NCBI GenBank assembly: GCA_048939765.1
Contig: JBHLPF010000014.1
Location: forward strand, 24,722 to 66,236
Direction: 5' to 3'
DNA from: Promethearchaeota archaeon
GTDB lineage: Archaea; Asgardarchaeota; Thorarchaeia; Thorarchaeales; Thorarchaeaceae
Length of the DNA: 41,515 nt
Part shown: positions 4,085 through 14,354 of the stretch, one piece after another
How the letters are laid out: each line of letters begins with the position of its first letter
How positions within the stretch are numbered: the stretch's first letter is position 1
The notes under the pieces: generated by a model
What the model saw: the letters and a program-made list of their open reading frames with translations, nothing else
What the model was told of the DNA's origin: nothing
The model's database searches: none
Translations under genes and position numbers: made by a program

Positions 4085-5353
4085 ATGGCGAGAAATAATT
4101 CTGGGTATCATTTTGCAACATGGACGACTCTCATTGAAGAGTCTCAAATTCGTGCTCTACTCAAGTACAAGGTCGAGTATTACTTTGCTGGTGGCAAGCC
4201 GGGAATCATGCCCACTGAAATCTTTGGGAAGATTATGGAGGAGCTTGGGCAGACCTACCAAAAGGACTCCAAACAGGCTCTTGACGATCTCAATTATGGG
4301 CCCACTGGTGGCGAGCCTTGGTTCCTGAAGACTCTGGCAAAGAGACTCCATGACAAGAGGAAATTGCCAATCGATCCTGAAAATGAATGGAGCAATGTCT
4401 CAATTACAAACGGATCCCAACAAGCGCTGTATGCCTTACTTGATACTCTTATCAATCCTGGTGATGTCATCATCACGCCCTCACCTTCCTATCTTGGGTT
4501 CCTAGTCCCCGCGGTAAAGCTTGGAGCACGAGTTCTATCAATTCCTACAGATCTTGATGGTCTGATTCCAGACTATGTAGAGAAAGGAATTCATCTCTCC
4601 CAACAGAAGTTTGGAAAGAACCCCGATATGGTGTATGTCGTGCCTGATAGTGATAATCCCAAGGGCACAACTTTACCCTGGAAGAGGCGGCAGGCTCTTT
4701 TCGATTTGTGTGAGAATGAGAATATCCTCATTGTTGAAGATTCCGCCTATGCTGAGATTCAGTTCAATAGTGCCCCTCCTGCCATCAAGACGCTTGATAA
4801 GGAGAATGAGCGTGTTGCATATTTGGGAACGACTAGCAAGGAGGCCGCAGTCCTAAGGGTCGGATATTCTATTCTGCCACCCAATGTGAGAGAACAAGTT
4901 CTGAAGGACAAAGGGTATCTTGATCTCTGCACCTCAACCCTGGTCCAACGAATTCTGGACATCTATTACAGGGACCATATCGACGAGGCGATGCGACAAA
5001 ACGTTCCTAGATACAAGAAACGCGCTGAAGCCATGGCCAAAGCTATTGATTCTTCATTCCCTGCAGGTGAACGGACTAATCCAACTGGTGGGTTCTTCTT
5101 CTGGTGGCAGAGCGAGAAACCATTTGATAGTAGCAAGTTCCTGGAAGAGCATGGGATTCCCAACGATATCATCTATGTGCCCGGAGAAGCATTCTATCCA
5201 ATCACTGGTTTTAAGCTGGTCGACAATGGTAATGACATAGAACCTAGTAGACCTGAGGTCAATACTATGCGTCTTGGCTTCTCTTATGCAACAAGGACTA
5301 AGATTGGAGAGGGAATTGAGAAACTCGGTCGACTCCTCTCCGAGAATATCTAG
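4085..5353 (+). CDS. PLP-dependent aminotransferase class I/II (LysN/ARO8/MocR-like)
   Basis: FAGGKP, YGPTGG, TNGSQQAL, NPKG, EDSAY and TTSK..LRVG (PLP lysine) motifs. Start is 4067 or 4085. Confidence 0.9.
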   Translation: MARNNSGYHFATWTTLIEESQIRALLKYKVEYYFAGGKPGIMPTEIFGKIMEELGQTYQKDSKQALDDLNYGPTGGEPWFLKTLAKRLHDKRKLPIDPENEWSNVSITNGSQQALYALLDTLINPGDVIITPSPSYLGFLVPAVKLGARVLSIPTDLDGLIPDYVEKGIHLSQQKFGKNPDMVYVVPDSDNPKGTTLPWKRRQALFDLCENENILIVEDSAYAEIQFNSAPPAIKTLDKENERVAYLGTTSKEAAVLRVGYSILPPNVREQVLKDKGYLDLCTSTLVQRILDIYYRDHIDEAMRQNVPRYKKRAEAMAKAIDSSFPAGERTNPTGGFFFWWQSEKPFDSSKFLEEHGIPNDIIYVPGEAFYPITGFKLVDNGNDIEPSRPEVNTMRLGFSYATRTKIGEGIEKLGRLLSENI

Positions 5354-7059
5354 AGGATGAAGTTGACGAAGTAGGTTGCCCCATTCTTCATCTCATGAAC
5401 ATGAGCCCTAAAGTATGGTCCGAAGAGGTCTGGAAACCCTGCGTTCAACGCCCATTCAATCCAAGACCAAGCGGATTCTTGGCTTACCTTTTCCCGGGTG
5501 AATTGTCCAAAGGCCCAGCTAAGATACTTTTCAACATCAATCTTGGTCAGGAGAAGACCCTCATCTGCTCTGCCACTGTCCTTCTTTGTTTCCAGCTCAG
5601 CATGGCGGTTATTGAGCTCAGAATGGGCCTTGAAGAGAGACTTCTCAAATTCAGCAAGAGCTTGGTTCATCTCATCAAATCGGTTCTTCTTTCTGAACCG
5701 CCCCACTTTTCCTAGAGTCTTAAACATCTCAGGACGATGAATCACTGGGAAGTCCTTTTCTCTCAATACTCCTGCGAGACTCTCATTCCAAGGCGTATTG
5801 AAGTAGATTCGCGGATATCTTACAAAAAGAGGGAATGGAATGTCGAGTGCTTTTGCTGCTGGAATGACCTGAGCATAATAGGCTGTTTCACCGGGTCCCC
5901 CAACGTGAGCCACAACTGGAAGGAGAGTATCAACCGCAATCTGTCTGGAGTCAACTCTCAATGAGAGTGAAACCGATACTTCTGATAGGTCTGGTGAGTC
6001 CGCATTGATTTCGATCTCGACAACATCGCTGCAAATTGGACATTTTCCTGTCAACAGAGCTTTCGACCCGCTCAGAGAGTAGGAGAGTTCGATTCGTGCT
6101 CGATTGCAGTCTTTCCCGCCACATTCGAAGAAGAACGGAACAAAGGTTGAATCTCTCATACCTATGCCTGGTTTGAATCCCTGATTTTGTATCATTGTGG
6201 TTGCATGCGAATGTGCAGCTAAGAATCTCTCTCTGTTCTCTTTGCCTAGGAGAAGCTCTAAACCGTGGGCCATTAAGTTTCTAATCTCATCATCAGTGGC
6301 AGGTACAAGTGGAACTCCAAGATCTCCCTCCAGATTGAGTAGATGACCGATAATTCTCTGACTCCATTCGCCAAGCGTATTTGAGTTGTGATATGCCCAA
6401 CGTGTTAAGCTCAATGATTGTTCGAGCCTTTCTTCTACCAATGTTCTGGCGTGACCATCAACAGATTTGAACAAAGGTCGATAATTGTGCCGGATGCTCT
6501 CTTCAGCTTGTTCGTACCATTGTCTTCCCGGAAGAGGAATTATGCTGACTGGAGAATATTCGTATCCAGGTGGTATGGGAATACTGACAAGATTCCCCTC
6601 TTGGCCTGCATTTGGAGTTCGGATGTTTGTCAATTCAGATTGTACAATATCATAATCTGCAATGAAGAAATAGGGTGTGAGCAGTAGGTCATCACTACTC
6701 CCGAATGTCGCTATGCTTCTGGCTGTGGCAGCTTTGTTTAGAATATAGCAAGGCCCTCCCATTGCAACACTCTGATGAGCTGCTTCTACAGCACCCTCAT
6801 GAAGATGATCTATTGCCTCCTTCACTTTGGGTGTAAGAATGCCCAGTCTTCTGTTGGCATCACTCAACGCCTTTGCGGTCCGTTCCCGCCTTTCTTCTAT
6901 GTGCCAATCAGTATTCGAATATCTCTGTAAAAGGGAACGTGCCTTCGTCGCTACTGCGCCCATTGTAATCACAGGCGAGCCATAGAGATGCGTAGCAAGA
7001 TCATTCAGTTCGCCTTTCCAAATGAACTGCTGATAGACTTCCATGATGCTTGCTTTCAC
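5350..7059 (-). CDS. bshC: Bacillithiol biosynthesis cysteine-adding enzyme BshC
   Basis: AHQ..MGGPCYILNKA (cf. GQQ..GPLYT.HK), ADYD (cf. EDHD), GGPGETAYYAQ signature, C-terminal coiled coil and QE motif; directly downstream of bshA. Confidence 0.85.
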   Translation of the reverse strand: MKASIMEVYQQFIWKGELNDLATHLYGSPVITMGAVATKARSLLQRYSNTDWHIEERRERTAKALSDANRRLGILTPKVKEAIDHLHEGAVEAAHQSVAMGGPCYILNKAATARSIATFGSSDDLLLTPYFFIADYDIVQSELTNIRTPNAGQEGNLVSIPIPPGYEYSPVSIIPLPGRQWYEQAEESIRHNYRPLFKSVDGHARTLVEERLEQSLSLTRWAYHNSNTLGEWSQRIIGHLLNLEGDLGVPLVPATDDEIRNLMAHGLELLLGKENRERFLAAHSHATTMIQNQGFKPGIGMRDSTFVPFFFECGGKDCNRARIELSYSLSGSKALLTGKCPICSDVVEIEINADSPDLSEVSVSLSLRVDSRQIAVDTLLPVVAHVGGPGETAYYAQVIPAAKALDIPFPLFVRYPRIYFNTPWNESLAGVLREKDFPVIHRPEMFKTLGKVGRFRKKNRFDEMNQALAEFEKSLFKAHSELNNRHAELETKKDSGRADEGLLLTKIDVEKYLSWAFGQFTREKVSQESAWSWIEWALNAGFPDLFGPYFRAHVHEMKNGATYFVNFIL

Positions 7060-7071
7060 TCAATTGCCCCC

Positions 7072-8235
7072 TCATTTGCCAACTACTTTTTCAAACACCT
7101 TTTCATACTCTGTCACGATCTTCTCAGCGGAGAAGCTTTCTTCCACCCGTTTTCGTCCCGCTTTGCCTATTTTGGTTCGGAGGGAATCGTCATCTAGTAT
7201 TTCGATTATTGCTTGGGCGTACTCATCAATCCCAAATCCGTCAGTGACTATCCCATCCTTATTTGGACGCACAAGTTCTGGAATTCCGCCGGCCGGTGTA
7301 GTGACTACTGGAAGACTGCATGCCATCGCTTCAAGCAGGACTAGTGGCATCCCTTCAAGGGTAGAGTTTAGGAGAAAAACGTCAGCAGAGCACATGATTT
7401 CCTGCATGTTACTCTTCACACCAAGTAAATGCACATTGTCACAGAGGTCAAGAGCTTCGATCTTCCTCTCCACTTCGATTCGAGTAGGTCCATCTCCTGC
7501 AATGATAAGGCGCACCTTGGGGTAGTGGTCTGCAACGATTCTCATTATCTCTATCAGTTCAACCACTCGTTTGACCTTGCGGAAATTGGAGGCATGTAGA
7601 AGGATTTTGGCTTCCGGATCTAATTCTTTTGCTTCTTCCACCTTTCGGACTGATACACACCCACTCTCAACCATAATTCTAGTCCCGTTGAGATGTTTGA
7701 ACTGTTCAACGTCGATGAAATTCGGTATCACACTTATCTCACGTTCAATGCCAAGCGCCTCCTGAGCCTTCCTTTTCAGAAATTCAGAAACCGCTGTGAC
7801 TGCATCTGCCTTCTCAATTGTGTGTTTGACAACTGGCTGATATGCAGGGTCTAGCCCTAGCGTATGCACATCGGAACCATGAAGCGTCACAACATATGGG
7901 ACGCCAACTATCTCGCGCGCCATGTAAGCTGACATTGCATGTGGGATTGCATAATGCGAATGTATCACATCTAGCTTTGCGTCTTTCACTGTCTTGATAA
8001 TCTTGGATGTGAGTGCCATGCCATAGGGCGGTCCAATGTTCTTAAACAGAGGATAATCAAATCGGTCGACGAGATCAACATAGACCCCGCTTGTTTGCTC
8101 CCACATCAGAGAGAAGGGCCGCTGGTAGGTTATGAAGTGAATGATATGGTTTCTACCAGCCAGCTTCTGACCAAGTCTTGTGGCAAGGTATCCGGAACCG
8201 CCAACTGAGGGGAATAGATTGACTCCAATCCTCAA
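7072..8235 (-). CDS. bshA: N-acetyl-alpha-D-glucosaminyl L-malate synthase BshA (GT4)
   Basis: PSVGGSG.LAT.LG, HFITY, HSHYAIPHA, TLHGSD, SNFRKVKR and EGMPLVLLEAMA are BshA signatures. Confidence 0.93.
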   Translation of the reverse strand: MRIGVNLFPSVGGSGYLATRLGQKLAGRNHIIHFITYQRPFSLMWEQTSGVYVDLVDRFDYPLFKNIGPPYGMALTSKIIKTVKDAKLDVIHSHYAIPHAMSAYMAREIVGVPYVVTLHGSDVHTLGLDPAYQPVVKHTIEKADAVTAVSEFLKRKAQEALGIEREISVIPNFIDVEQFKHLNGTRIMVESGCVSVRKVEEAKELDPEAKILLHASNFRKVKRVVELIEIMRIVADHYPKVRLIIAGDGPTRIEVERKIEALDLCDNVHLLGVKSNMQEIMCSADVFLLNSTLEGMPLVLLEAMACSLPVVTTPAGGIPELVRPNKDGIVTDGFGIDEYAQAIIEILDDDSLRTKIGKAGRKRVEESFSAEKIVTEYEKVFEKVVGK

Positions 8236-8266
8236 CCGCTACACCTTTTGAGAACACTATAGAGCG

Positions 8267-8279
8267 CCCCTTTAAGGGG
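8267..8279. promoter_or_regulatory. Imperfect palindrome CCCCTTTAAGGGG with TATA-like core in the divergent bshA/bshB promoter region
   Basis: Seen directly, about 30-45 nt upstream of the bshA start. Confidence 0.4.
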
Positions 8280-8374
8280 AATGGTCTGGACATCAATTCG
8301 ATTTTCCATGCATCTCGCATTAATGGCTTGTGATGTGCCAAAGCTTGATTAGCAGCCGCAATCCTAGCGGCCCT

Positions 8375-9043
8375 ATGAGCAGCCTATCAAAGAACTCCAT
8401 CCTTGTGGTCGTTGCACATCCAGATGATGAGACCTTGGGAGCTGGAGGGACAATCAGGAAGCATGTGGAGCAAGGAGTTCCAGTTGATGTCCACTGCATG
8501 ACAGGCAATGACACTCGGAATGCCGAGGTCAAAGCAGCATGTGAAGTCTTGGGAGTTCGACATCTGTATCTCAGTGAGAGAGATGACTTCGCTATCGATT
8601 CCTCCTTGACAAACGAAGTGATTGGTGCGATCTTGAAGTCGCGTCCAACCATCGTGATTACACATTCCCTGGAGGACTATAACAAAAACCATAGCGAGTG
8701 TGCAAAGATTGTCGTGCATGCTGCGGAATGGGCTTCACACGCGACAGTCTTTGACAATGCGCATAGAGTCGAACGAATCTACCATATGGAGGTCAATAGT
8801 CTTCATTCAATACCCAATGTACACGTCGATATTGGGAACACCTACGAAGTAGCTCTTCAAGCCTTGCGAGAACATAAATCCCAGATTCCTAAGTCCGATC
8901 AGTATTATTTGAAGTTGTACGATGCAAGAACGCGTCTACGAGGAGTTCAAGCTGCATGCGATAGAGCAGAAGCGTTTGTAATCACTCTGCCCACCCACGC
9001 GGGTCCGTTCTACCCAAAAAACGCTGTTGATCGGCTCGTCTGA
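8375..9043 (+). CDS. bshB: PIG-L/LmbE-family deacetylase, probable BshB (GlcNAc-malate deacetylase)
   Basis: AHPDDE metal motif, MTG, R..E..AA..LG, HKSQ and RG....AEAF motifs; divergent from bshA. Likely ATG at 8375. Confidence 0.8.
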   Translation: MSSLSKNSILVVVAHPDDETLGAGGTIRKHVEQGVPVDVHCMTGNDTRNAEVKAACEVLGVRHLYLSERDDFAIDSSLTNEVIGAILKSRPTIVITHSLEDYNKNHSECAKIVVHAAEWASHATVFDNAHRVERIYHMEVNSLHSIPNVHVDIGNTYEVALQALREHKSQIPKSDQYYLKLYDARTRLRGVQAACDRAEAFVITLPTHAGPFYPKNAVDRLV

Positions 9044-9062
9044 GGCATCAAGGAAGATTCCA

Positions 9063-9458
9063 TTAAGTTCCATCTGCCTTTCGTCGTCTGGCAGCAAGCA
9101 GTGCTTTGAGTTCGCCCATCATTCCACCTGGACCTGAAGGTGCCCTTGGAGGCGGGGCTTTAGCAATGGGGGCCGAAGCTATAGGTTCACCGCCTGCCGC
9201 AGCCGCTGCTGGCGAGGGACCGGCTGCAGCGACCCCGGATCTCTGTAATGCGCTGATTTTGGCATCAAACGAAGACTCTAGTTTGGATAGCTGAGTCTGG
9301 AGTTCGTAGACATCCTCCATAACCTTACTGACAGCTTCTGTGAGTTTGGTTGTGATTATACTCACGACCTCTCCGAGAGCACGCAGTTTCTCTTCTGTTG
9401 GGTCTTTCAAAGCCCATTCAAACTCATCCATAATGAAGTCTTCGCCATCTTTGCTCAT
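9063..9458 (-). CDS. Small coiled-coil / Ala-Pro-rich protein with C-terminal Ena/VASP FAB-like (WH2-related) motif; putative actin-binding protein
   Basis: Heptad-like helix at aa ~20-73, APPPRAPSGP linker and GGMMGELKALLAARRRKA C-terminus. It has its own TATA box and a GGGG RBS. The gene itself is well supported; the function is inferred. Confidence 0.6.
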   Translation of the reverse strand: MSKDGEDFIMDEFEWALKDPTEEKLRALGEVVSIITTKLTEAVSKVMEDVYELQTQLSKLESSFDAKISALQRSGVAAAGPSPAAAAAGGEPIASAPIAKAPPPRAPSGPGGMMGELKALLAARRRKADGT

Positions 9459-9496
9459 TTCATAGACCCCTTTAGCGCCTGAAAGTGGGCGTTTTG

Positions 9497-9504
9497 TCTA
9501 TAAA
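9497..9504 (-). promoter_or_regulatory. TATA box (TTTATAGA on minus strand) for the 131-aa gene
   Basis: Canonical TTTATA about 40 nt upstream of ATG 9458, inside the 69-nt intergenic gap. Confidence 0.55.
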
Positions 9505-9527
9505 CATATTCCGCGTGCAGCTGAGTG

Positions 9528-10904
9528 TCATAACTTGCCTATGACTCTCTCCACTTCTGCTTTGGCGTCTGCAAGTATCTTTTCCACCTGCTTGTCAGAT
9601 GGAGCCTCACACGTAATTCTAATGACTGGTTCAGTTCCCGATGGTCGAACAAGAACCCATCCTGCTTTGAGTGAGATGCCGATTCCATCCACTGTGATAA
9701 CTTCTGCGGAGCCTTCCATCGCTTCTGGCAGTGATTTGACGAGAGCCGTCATAACCGCGCTTTTGTTCTCATTCTGACATTTGACTTTGGCTTTTCGTAG
9801 TGGGTAGGCCGGGATTTCAGAGATTAGCTCTCCAAAGGATTTCCCTGTAGATGCCATTAATTCAAGAATCCTGCATGCAGTCAGAAATGGCTCTGGAGCA
9901 TTGTGGAATTCTGAGAAGATGAACACACCTGCCGCCTCTCCGCCGAATGCTGCTCCGGTCTCTCTCATCTTGAGAGCGACCTGAATGTCCCCCACAGGAG
10001 TTCTAATTGTCTTCCCACCAGCCTTCTCGACTGTTTCATCAACGATTTTGGAGCTGTCTACAGTCGTGACAATGGTCTTATCCATGGAGCGCTTGATTTC
10101 TTCTCGTGATAGGAGGGCGATGGTCCTATCTCCCCTAATCACCTCTCCCTTTTCCGTAACAAAGACTACTCTGTCTGCATCACCATCGTGTGCAATGCCA
10201 AGGTCTGCACCAGTATCCCTGACCATTTTGGTGAGGTCTTTCAGCGACTCCTTGTCAGGCTCAGACGCTCTTCCAGGAAAATGACCATCTGGTTGACCAT
10301 TTATTGAGATGACTTTGCAAGCTAGCCTTCTCATTAGGTACGGAGTCAATACTGAGCCGGAACCATTACCCGGGTCGACGATGATGTTGTACTCCTTGGA
10401 TTCAATGCTTTTGGAATCGACCAGTTCAAGAATGGCTGTAATGTGTTCATCTACAGCAGTTTCTGTGGTTCGTTCTTCGCCCAAGCCATTCCAATTGGCT
10501 ACTTGAAACGCCTCTTCAGTATAGATTCGCTCAATCTCTCTCTCCATCTCAGGGGTGTATCCCATACTATCTGGACTCCAGAACTTCACACCGGTGTACT
10601 CAGGAGGATTGTGGGATGCAGTTACCATGAGTCCTGCATTGTAGCCATGCTGTCTTGTGATGAACGCGAGAGTAGGAGTCGGTATCATGCCCGCCTTTAC
10701 AACATCGACACCCGTAGACATAATGCCTGCTGCAAGAGCATCCTCAATCATTGGTCCAGTTGTGCGTGCATCTCTTGCCAATACAACAGTTCCTTTCCCA
10801 AGATAGGATCCAAGGGCTTTTCCAAGTCTTAGTGCCATCGAGAGATCGAATTCAGTACCGTAGACCTTTCGAATGCCTGTAGTACCGAAGAGAGTGCGTG
10901 TCAT
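9528..10904 (-). CDS. glmM: Phosphoglucosamine mutase / phosphohexomutase (PGM/PMM family)
   Basis: LFGTTGIR, TASHNP phosphoserine loop, DGDADR metal loop, GGE and RPSGTEP motifs. Confidence 0.85.
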   Translation of the reverse strand: MTRTLFGTTGIRKVYGTEFDLSMALRLGKALGSYLGKGTVVLARDARTTGPMIEDALAAGIMSTGVDVVKAGMIPTPTLAFITRQHGYNAGLMVTASHNPPEYTGVKFWSPDSMGYTPEMEREIERIYTEEAFQVANWNGLGEERTTETAVDEHITAILELVDSKSIESKEYNIIVDPGNGSGSVLTPYLMRRLACKVISINGQPDGHFPGRASEPDKESLKDLTKMVRDTGADLGIAHDGDADRVVFVTEKGEVIRGDRTIALLSREEIKRSMDKTIVTTVDSSKIVDETVEKAGGKTIRTPVGDIQVALKMRETGAAFGGEAAGVFIFSEFHNAPEPFLTACRILELMASTGKSFGELISEIPAYPLRKAKVKCQNENKSAVMTALVKSLPEAMEGSAEVITVDGIGISLKAGWVLVRPSGTEPVIRITCEAPSDKQVEKILADAKAEVERVIGKL

Positions 10905-11965: not shown

Positions 11966-12514
11966 GTGAGCAGCTCATACGACTACCTCTTCAAGGTTGT
12001 AGTCCTCGGTGAGGGCGCTGTGGGAAAGACTGCCATCGTCACACGCTTCTCACACGGCTTCTTCAGGACCGATTACAAAACGACGATTGGATCTCAGTTC
12101 GCTGTCAAGAACATCGACATAGTCGCCCCAGATGGCGAGAATCAAGTTGTGAAGCTGCAAATCTGGGATGTCGCAGGCCAGTCTAGATTTCAGATACTGC
12201 GGCCGATGTACTATCGTGGCTCTAACGGAGGGCTTCTAGTATACGATGTGTCCAGACGCCGGACCTTCATGTTGCTGCAAGAGTGGCTAGACGAGCTTCA
12301 TAAAGCCATTCAGAAGGAGATCCCATTGGTGCTCGTGGCCAATAAGACGGACCTGCCAGATCGAGTCATAGAGCCCTCGGAGGGCAGGGAGTTTGCCGAT
12401 GCTCATGGCATGCCCTATGTGGAGAGCTCAGCAAAGACTGGCGAGGGAGTCGTTGACATTTTTGAAGAGCTGGGCACTGTGCTTGTCAGAATGCGTCAGA
12501 ATGTAAACCGCTAG
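11966..12514 (+). CDS. Rab-like small GTPase (eukaryotic signature protein)
   Basis: G1 GEGAVGKT, G2 TTIG, G3 WDVAGQ, G4 NKTD, G5 SAK. RabF-like motifs IGSQF, KLQIW, YYRGS and LVYDVS. GGAGG RBS. Confidence 0.95.
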   Translation: MSSSYDYLFKVVVLGEGAVGKTAIVTRFSHGFFRTDYKTTIGSQFAVKNIDIVAPDGENQVVKLQIWDVAGQSRFQILRPMYYRGSNGGLLVYDVSRRRTFMLLQEWLDELHKAIQKEIPLVLVANKTDLPDRVIEPSEGREFADAHGMPYVESSAKTGEGVVDIFEELGTVLVRMRQNVNR

Positions 12515-13772: not shown

Positions 13773-14354
13773 ATGACTGATTCTGACGAATACTATGCAG
13801 TAAACATAATTCCTGCAATCGCATGGGCATTGAATCTGTATCTAAAGACTGGTGCTCGCTTCAAAGACAAGACCCTCGAGGTTGTCTTTCCGGCTGGAGA
13901 TCATAAGGAGAACATGATGAAGAAGGGAGAACATGAGATAGCTGTATGGATTTCAAATCGCAGGATCTATGCCAGAGCAAGGTGCAATTTCAAGAAGGAC
14001 TGCAAAGTCAACACTGAGCGTGTGAATGGAACCGACCGCGATGCTCTGAAGGAGCTTCCTTGGGATGAGGTCAATGTACGTGCATTCTTCAAGACGATGA
14101 TGAAATGGCTAATGCGGATGGATCTTGACTTCAAAACGCTGATCCGCTCATTCAATACTGTATGTAACGATCGCGTGGCACTGCCGCTTACGACAAAATA
14201 CGGCAAGACCTTCAACGAATTCAACGACTATCGCAAGACCAAATGGCCCAAGGATGCCACTCCTGACAACCGGAGCCGTTTCTTGGAGGAAGTTCTTGTC
14301 AGGGTGTCTTTCTGGATGCAGTCAGCAGCTCAAGTCAATGCTCTGGACTACTAG
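13773..14354 (+). CDS. Hypothetical protein (193 aa)
   Basis: Long ORF filling the gap with protein-like composition; no motif recognised. Confidence 0.7.
   Translation: MTDSDEYYAVNIIPAIAWALNLYLKTGARFKDKTLEVVFPAGDHKENMMKKGEHEIAVWISNRRIYARARCNFKKDCKVNTERVNGTDRDALKELPWDEVNVRAFFKTMMKWLMRMDLDFKTLIRSFNTVCNDRVALPLTTKYGKTFNEFNDYRKTKWPKDATPDNRSRFLEEVLVRVSFWMQSAAQVNALDY

Follow-up and report, generated by a model that had tools for sequence, protein, structure and literature searches.

The window analysed here, a stretch of 41,515 nucleotides from a Promethearchaeota archaeon of the Thorarchaeaceae, carries a small gene, P0001, beside a bacillithiol-type cluster that comprises a BshC-like ligase, a GT4 glycosyltransferase, a divergent PIG-L deacetylase and a phosphohexomutase (Table 1). 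The initial annotation had described a 131-aa protein with its own TATA box, and the open reading frame gives exactly that. At the position of the upstream TTTATA element, GTTTATAG is found identically placed in three of four aligned loci of Thorarchaeota (Thor), while the GGGGTCT site, probably the ribosome-binding site, is kept in all four aligned Thor upstream regions with GGTCT invariant. Because both elements are kept among Thor upstream regions, the gene has its own conserved expression signals.

Table 1. Coordinates of the gene, its predicted parts and its neighbours in the window
Feature	Position	Strand	Remarks
Whole gene P0001	9063..9458	(-)	131 codons plus TAA stop
TTTATA, TATA-box-like	9499..9504	(-)	46 nt 5' of ATG; direct reading
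GGGGTCT, Shine-Dalgarno-like	9464..9470	(-)	6-12 nt 5' of ATG
Conserved N-terminal module, aa 12-39, EFEWALKDPTEEKLRALGEVVSIITTKL	9342..9425	(-)	Acidic-aromatic helix, turn, start of the long helix
Long helix, aa 20-73	9240..9401	(-)	Unbroken 3-4 hydrophobic spacing; candidate oligomerising coiled coil
Ala/Pro/Gly-rich linker, aa 74-112	9123..9239	(-)	Predicted disordered (AlphaFold2); length and sequence vary among homologues
APPPRAP, short proline motif within the linker, aa 101-107	9138..9158	(-)	Thor consensus KAPPPxAP
C-terminal amphipathic helix and basic patch, aa 113-129, MMGELKALLAARRRKAD	9072..9122	(-)	VASP-FAB-like; AlphaFold2 helix
BshC-like ligase	5350-7059		Bacillithiol-type cluster beside the gene
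GT4 glycosyltransferase	7072-8235		Bacillithiol-type cluster beside the gene
PIG-L deacetylase, divergent	8330-9043		Bacillithiol-type cluster beside the gene
Phosphohexomutase	9528-10904		Bacillithiol-type cluster (5350-10904) beside the gene
Ras/Rab-like small GTPase	11966-12514		167 bits to Pfam Ras; synteny kept across Thorarchaeota
193-aa protein	13773-14354		No Pfam match; same Thorarchaeota synteny block

The architecture proposed in the initial annotation agrees with direct reading of the protein and with an AlphaFold2 model of its 131 residues built with 47 homologues. The acidic N-terminus is apparent in residues 1-24, with nine acidic and three basic residues. The model contains helices at residues 4-17, 20-73 and 113-129, with pLDDT above 90 across 31-70, and predicts residues 74-112 as disordered and without secondary structure, pLDDT falling below 50 over 76-96. 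The second helix coincides with the heptad-like helix claimed at about residues 20-73, and the disordered region with the flexible Ala/Pro linker containing APPPRAPSGP. Both this motif and GPGGMMGELKALLAARRRKA are found in the protein, the latter being the C-terminal motif whose core, nucleotides 9075-9128, corresponds to amino acids 111-128. The sequence of the long helix varies among homologues and its heptad pattern is retained.

Homologues of P0001 form a family without a name. A word-indexed search returned 281 clusters at E ≤ 0.01, nearly all of them from Thorarchaeota MAGs and all unnamed, and an exhaustive phmmer search of 1.8 billion representatives yielded only 11 clusters at the 50% level. 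The genome survey, carried out with a family profile built from 36 Thor sequences, gave matches in 253 of 400 genomes of the phylum and in 79 of the 85 genomes of the window's own family; the profile also matched 112 of 135, 11 of 14 and 13 of 19 genomes of three other Asgard families, plus several more, at 1e-7 to 1e-13. Orthologues are also present in Loki-, Hel-, Jord- and Freyarchaeia. Closed Loki-type genomes hold one copy each, and the tail profile detected one copy per genome in the five genomes searched with it. The family is pan-Asgard, and in the genomes seen so far it almost always has a single copy. It is confined to actin-bearing Asgard archaea, and so its orthologues do not sit mainly in actin-less lineages, a distribution that would have told against the earlier proposal of an actin regulator. 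The fetched homologue ORFs, of 130-160 aa, keep the same layout. A search of the full-text literature on Asgard WH2, VASP, polyproline/profilin and Lokiactin found no description of the family.

Conservation is restricted to two blocks, residues 12-39 (EFEWALxDPTEEKLRxLGEVVSIIT) and the tail, residues 113-127, so that the terminal motif of the initial annotation is itself one of the conserved parts. The fraction of the commonest residue is 0.89 in Thor and 0.74 phylum-wide for the former block, 0.93 and 0.81 for the latter, and 0.42-0.56 for the coil and linker. Among the 36 Thor sequences residues 12-39 are mostly invariant, and in the tail M114, E116, L117, K118, L120, L121, A122, A123, R124, R125 and K127 do not vary at all. 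All 15 tails compared, which come from several Asgard classes, contain ELKxL without change, E116, L117, K118 and L120 being nearly unvarying across the classes, and the core of the family tail can be written [IM][MQ]GELKxL[FL]xx[RK][RK]. In orthologues outside Thor, PPPPPG tracts directly precede the end helix, and in those of Loki type the PPPPPG repeats occupy the place of the Thor APPPRAP; in a Lokiarchaeum-type genome three PPPPPGR-type repeats are followed by NPVSLRGSIMDELKTLFSKRRT and then by an acidic run (DDDDDD). A divergent form of 192 aa is present in a further family (G065, L028:1228-1806, minus strand), with a much longer Ser/Pro-rich linker and the tail MNLELKEAFARIKKGWSEDE, in which the basic patch is followed by Trp and acidic residues. 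The search for longer family members gave as its sole result a phosphomannomutase fusion, and forms fused to a gelsolin or a GTPase were not recovered. This single record, P0141 (472 aa, on a 2,127-nt JGI contig), is most likely due to a frameshift or read-through across two adjacent Thor genes and not a real fusion. Two ORFs of 775 and 211 aa that matched the profile weakly in a closed Thor genome proved to be plain coiled coils.

The C-terminal tail had been likened to the F-actin-binding segment (FAB) of human VASP, quoted in a form close to the published sequence. In human VASP this segment comprises residues 259-278, the GAB residues 223-239 and the tetramerisation coil residues 343-380 (PMC10340426). 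The human FAB aligns with the Thor tail 109-GPGGMMGELKALLAARRRKAD-129 with 13 of 20 residues identical, one gap and the same hydrophobic register. Of all 10,104 six-frame ORFs of the genome, this tail gives the best local alignment to the FAB, with a score of 55 against 43 for the next. Shuffling the FAB peptide 110 times never produced a score as high as 55, the mean maximum being 39.6 and the highest 53, from which a Gumbel P of ~7e-4 was obtained, a value that overstates the significance somewhat because the shuffles keep neither the helical periodicity nor the basic cluster. The likeness of the Thor tail to the FAB, as judged from these alignments, exceeds chance at genome scale. It is found in Thor alone: four Thor tails score 35-64, three of them at least 55, and those of Loki, Hel, Jord, Frey and f11 remain at chance level with 18-37 (chance maximum ~40). 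The Gly run and LLAARRRKA, which make the match striking, are Thor innovations on the family core. Since close identity with the FAB is limited to Thor, convergence or chance is favoured over common descent with VASP; this restriction has no bearing on whether the helix works like a FAB. The published GAB scores 20 against the Thor tail, below unrelated ORFs of the genome (33-35), and the GAB, a WH2-like G-actin-binding site with KLRK, has no counterpart.

Profile searches place the protein in no known class of actin regulators. Pfam searches at E ≤ 10 with P0001 and 47 family members gave only weak coiled-coil noise. Neither EVH1 (WH1), in whose place the AlphaFold2 model has two N-terminal helices, nor VASP_tetra was matched by P0001 or the 47 members, and among the latter there was no match to WH2 (PF02205) at E ≤ 10 or to other actin-binding Pfam families. 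As regards a WH2-type layout, helix 113-129 has a hydrophobic face followed by RRRK, and the LKKV spacing and its Leu are not reproduced; the Loki-type tails, inspected for an LKK[TV]-type motif, end in SKRR. PDB sequence searches with the tail and the tail profile retrieved nothing relevant and no WH2-containing chain, and the whole-family profile found generic coiled coils, mostly trimeric. The ESM Atlas search recovered no family but the unnamed one of the protein itself, and the tail had no match among named clusters. A profilin-binding tract of GPPPPP type is absent from the window protein, where the only proline motif, APPPRAP, is too short to count as such a tract. Because EVH1, GAB, WH2 and VASP-tetramerisation matches are all lacking, the protein is not a member of the Ena/VASP or WH2 families but at most an analogue. 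Membership of Ena/VASP is not supported, the coil being moreover N-terminal and the FAB likeness confined to Thor. The combination of a coil, a proline segment and an actin-binding-like motif given in the initial annotation holds as a three-part layout, with a proline segment that is short in Thor. The ESCRT motifs MIM1 and MIM2 were rejected by eye because of a mismatch at the key Leu and Arg positions.

The tail profile gave no match to GelX of Lokiarchaeum ossiferum in the five genomes, and its only extra match there was a 697-aa membrane protein of one Loki genus. This protein (G143, L029:817-2910, equal to L052:1477-3591) has a C-terminal hydrophobic segment and an internal copy of the motif, SAPPPPGSAPKSPQTLRGGMTEELKTLFSK. 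Its gene lies directly downstream of a two-domain gelsolin plus zinc-ribbon gene. A second genome, G141, keeps the motif of the 697-aa protein, and the upstream gene is there an LVIVD-repeat protein; there is therefore no conserved gelsolin link.

In its overall layout the protein resembles several known systems, and differs from each. As in Ena/VASP, an oligomerising coil would be combined with a flexible region that contains proline and with an amphipathic helix whose end is a basic cluster, and the Thor tail has the i, i+1, i+4, i+7, i+8 hydrophobic register of the FAB. However, its coil is N-terminal, 54 residues long and of heptad type, whereas that of VASP is short, C-terminal and a right-handed tetramer; its length is 131 aa where VASP has 380, no such similarity exists outside Thor, the proline segment in Thor is only APPPRAP, and actin binding is here a candidate property. 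Among WH2 proteins (WASP/WAVE, WIP, MIM, thymosin beta4) a short amphipathic helix followed by basic residues, often after polyproline, is likewise found, and in MIM, as here, the motif is placed at the very C-terminus, the helical oligomerisation domain being N-terminal; the present tail, in contrast, has no LKK[TV] after a Gly-containing linker, and its invariant ELKxL core has no WH2 counterpart. The archaeal stalk protein aP1, the FtsZ C-terminal peptide and PIP-box clients are flexible-arm recruiters with a conserved C-terminal peptide. They resemble the present protein in that a disordered, Ala/Pro-rich linker joins an oligomerisation domain at the N-terminus to a short hydrophobic docking helix at the C-terminus, but the aP1 tail follows acidic residues and ends in LFG, a PIP box needs Gln and two aromatic residues, and none of these recruiters has polyproline tracts. 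Among archaeal actin regulators, arcadin-2, a crenactin depolymeriser of Pyrobaculum, has an unstructured linker between its core and a conserved C-terminal helix, and this helix alone binds the hydrophobic groove of crenactin (PMC5173319). Comparison with that description finds the same layout in the present protein, where a structured core is likewise followed by an unstructured linker that is not conserved and by a small C-terminal helix that is. Unlike this gene, which is unlinked to actin, the arcadin-2 gene lies in the arcade cluster beside crenactin; the two proteins are not detectably related in sequence, arcadin-2 depends on Trp where this tail has Met/Leu and a basic patch, and the coiled-coil hub would imply multivalency rather than simple sequestration. 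The Asgard 2DGel gelsolins, for their part, carry a WH2-like LRRV/LKDV linker (PMC7444086; bioRxiv 10.1101/2025.11.30.690169).

Asgard archaea encode actin, profilin and gelsolins. The host genome (3.37 Mb, 88.5% complete) encodes a eukaryote-like actin (441 bits to PF00022, C46:81285-82388) and has four gelsolin-domain matches, on contigs other than that of the window; the Pfam profilin model found no match in it, and the controls likewise had none. The gene is not clustered with actin, which lies on contig C46 while the window lies on C83. Throughout Thor a strict synteny is kept, with NAD kinase, the 193-aa protein, the Ras/Arf-like GTPase, a hydrolase, the phosphohexomutase, the gene itself and the PIG-L/GT4/BshC cluster, and no actin, profilin or gelsolin among these neighbours. 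The order of the cluster persists in Thor genomes whose orthologues share only 46-58% identity with the window protein. In non-Thor genomes it lies beside other genes, for an Elf1-like protein and for a helical protein of 206 aa that has no match in Pfam. Gene order yields no functional clue. The 206-aa all-helical protein (L018:4248-4865 and six other loci) is encoded directly upstream of the orthologue in seven non-Thor (Loki-type) loci; considered as a counterpart of the Thor 193-aa neighbour, it proved unrelated. The host genome also encodes a second protein with a proline-rich arm and an end helix, of ~330 aa (C37:119923-120954, plus strand), in which a hydrophobic N-terminal segment and a helical domain are followed by very long GPPS/GGAAP repeats and the C-terminal helix KSSLQSEMLREMERLKALMGGD. 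Between the actin gene and a two-domain gelsolin (C46:96910-97431) lies the gene for a zinc-ribbon, proline-rich, long coiled-coil protein (C46:87947-89104, minus strand).

Data from Lokiarchaeum ossiferum bear on the expression and partners of the family. The Lokiactin Co-IP of this organism enriched Lokiactin, five gelsolin-homology proteins, profilin and an Arf GTPase (bioRxiv 10.1101/2025.11.30.690169; Nature, PMC13716822), and its authors state that the data under-represent membrane-associated proteins (bioRxiv 10.1101/2025.11.30.690169). The orthologue is most probably GNAMCCOK_02219, a mapping deduced from the monoisotopic mass of the product of the adjoining upstream gene (24.013 kDa, against 24.01 for GNAMCCOK_02218) and from the positions of 2DGel genes relative to locus tags. 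The protein so identified was detected in 16 of 16 proteomes, with a mean log2 of 18.47 against 18.64 for GelX, and is not among the Lokiactin Co-IP rows listed, which run from log2 +10 to -1.06. This absence is weak evidence against a stable complex with Lokiactin. Contacts of FAB and WH2 type are typically weak and salt-sensitive. The Elf1-like zinc-ribbon neighbour (GNAMCCOK_02218; L026:738-1358 in G138, most probably L. ossiferum) is itself given as enriched in the Lokiactin Co-IP, with a log2 of 1.36 and an adjusted p of 0.034.

Taken as a whole, the layout would be that of a small oligomeric hub, in which two to four chains are expected to be paired or bundled through residues 12-73, every one of them extending a 40-residue disordered Ala/Pro arm that ends in the near-invariant amphipathic helix and basic patch of residues 113-127. 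The end helix would be a docking peptide for a strongly conserved partner, and this partner would most likely be Asgard actin, bound in the way that the VASP FAB, WH2-type helices and the C-terminal helix of arcadin-2 bind theirs, with the hydrophobic face on a surface or groove of actin and the basic residues against the acidic filament. Being multivalent, such a hub would serve to bundle or cross-link filaments or to concentrate subunits at the ends of filaments. Where a lineage has PPPPPG tracts, a proline-binding partner, for instance profilin, might be recruited in addition, and the placing of polyproline directly before the helix would correspond to the hallmark arrangement of eukaryotic actin-assembly factors. 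Loki profilins have nevertheless been reported not to bind polyproline, and the Thor profilin binds it weakly, with millimolar affinity (PMC8410842). Proline tracts and profilin behaviour are therefore anti-correlated, the Loki orthologues having the richest tracts and the Thor tract being minimal (profilin data from PMC8410842). The robust part of this interpretation is the design, namely flexible arms that lead from a multimerising helical hub to a docking helix of high conservation. We infer oligomerisation, the docking role of the helix and, above all, the identity of the partner. Actin is the best single candidate because of the FAB match, the polyproline in other lineages, the restriction of the family to actin-bearing Asgard archaea and the extreme conservation, such as the ligand of a strongly conserved protein should show; a hub-and-arm protein whose end helix docks on actin is thus our preferred reading of the sequences, held tentatively and with rather less than even confidence. 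That the family is a phylum-wide Asgard factor for actin assembly or bundling, and as such a functional analogue of Ena/VASP- and WASP-type machines or their functional forerunner, is a more doubtful proposition.

The same hub and arms could also serve an end helix that docks on another conserved protein, such as PCNA, reached through a degenerate PIP-like box ([MQ]-x-E-L-K-x-L-[FL] plus basic residues), a translational or small GTPase, in the manner of the aP1 tail, or a division protein, in the manner of the FtsZ C-terminal peptide. An oligomerisation domain joined through a flexible linker to a short conserved C-terminal helix is a general recruiting design, used by the aP1 stalk, the FtsZ C-terminal peptide, ParR and PIP-box proteins, and the layout fits it. 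A partner other than actin would also agree with the lack of Lokiactin enrichment among the Co-IP rows listed and of any genomic link to actin genes, and the tails of Hel/Jord/Frey type, QxELKALF, come near the PIP box Qxx[LIM]xx[FY][FY]. The PIP consensus is nonetheless not reproduced, because Gln is not conserved, being present only in the Hel/Jord/Frey types with Met instead in Thor (MGELKALL) and Loki, and because position 7 is Leu or Ala throughout and never aromatic. Upstream polyproline is, moreover, typical of actin-assembly factors and not of PCNA or GTPase clients, the Thor tail matches the FAB above chance, and the gene neighbourhood points to no partner; a different docking partner is possible rather than probable. 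It seems unlikely that the end helix and RRRK form a membrane-targeting sequence, as in MinD, FtsA or MreB, and that the protein sits peripherally on the membrane as a tether, with something else held there by its N-terminal module. The tail displays the layout that is classic for membrane targeting, in which a flexible linker leads to an amphipathic helix and a polybasic patch at the very C-terminus, and the bias of the Co-IP against membrane-associated proteins would explain the absence of the orthologue. Such helices, however, usually conserve amphipathicity and not identity, whereas E116, L117, K118 and L120 hardly vary; the terminal DDDDDD of the Loki-type tail would repel acidic lipids, and the orthologue is abundant in whole proteomes. 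The invariance of E116 and K118, flanking the hydrophobic face, fits an interface with a specific protein better than a helix that binds lipid generically.

Two further explanations concern the origin of the tail and the neighbouring genes. True homology of the tail with the FAB block of the Ena/VASP EVH2 domain, the family being ancestral to Ena/VASP, would account for the 13/20 identity, which includes the Gly run and the ARRRKA end, and for the polyproline that adjoins the helix in other lineages. It is very improbable, as high similarity is restricted to Thor with all other tails under the chance maximum, EVH1, GAB and VASP_tetra are missing, the domain order is reversed with a coil of a different kind, and a 20-residue amphipathic and basic motif converges easily. 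Still harder to credit is a role with the neighbours (phosphohexomutase, PIG-L, GT4, BshC-like), for example as a scaffold for a sugar-thiol pathway. The order PGM/PMM, gene, PIG-L, GT4, BshC is indeed maintained at the low orthologue identities given above, but the gene has its own conserved promoter, and non-Thor orthologues, including those of Loki type, have no bsh-type neighbours, their surroundings being entirely different. As the protein is conserved outside Thor despite these different neighbours, the Thor synteny looks like a frozen gene order.

The Asgard actin regulators treated in the literature are mainly profilins and gelsolins (bioRxiv 10.1101/2025.11.30.690169; PMC13716822), and Asgard crawling has been discussed as motility without formins or Ena/VASP (bioRxiv 10.1101/2025.11.30.690169; 2026 Nature, PMC13716822). 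If the protein described here binds actin, it would represent a third class of Asgard regulator beyond these two. The candidate is a small protein with good expression that occurs in several Asgard classes, and it would join a multimerising coil, proline tracts and a VASP-like helix. In that case a protein of 131 residues and a peptide of 20 would allow a direct test of how eukaryotic filament-assembly factors originated. If the partner is not actin, the family would still be among the better-conserved unannotated Asgard proteins, with a partner worth finding.
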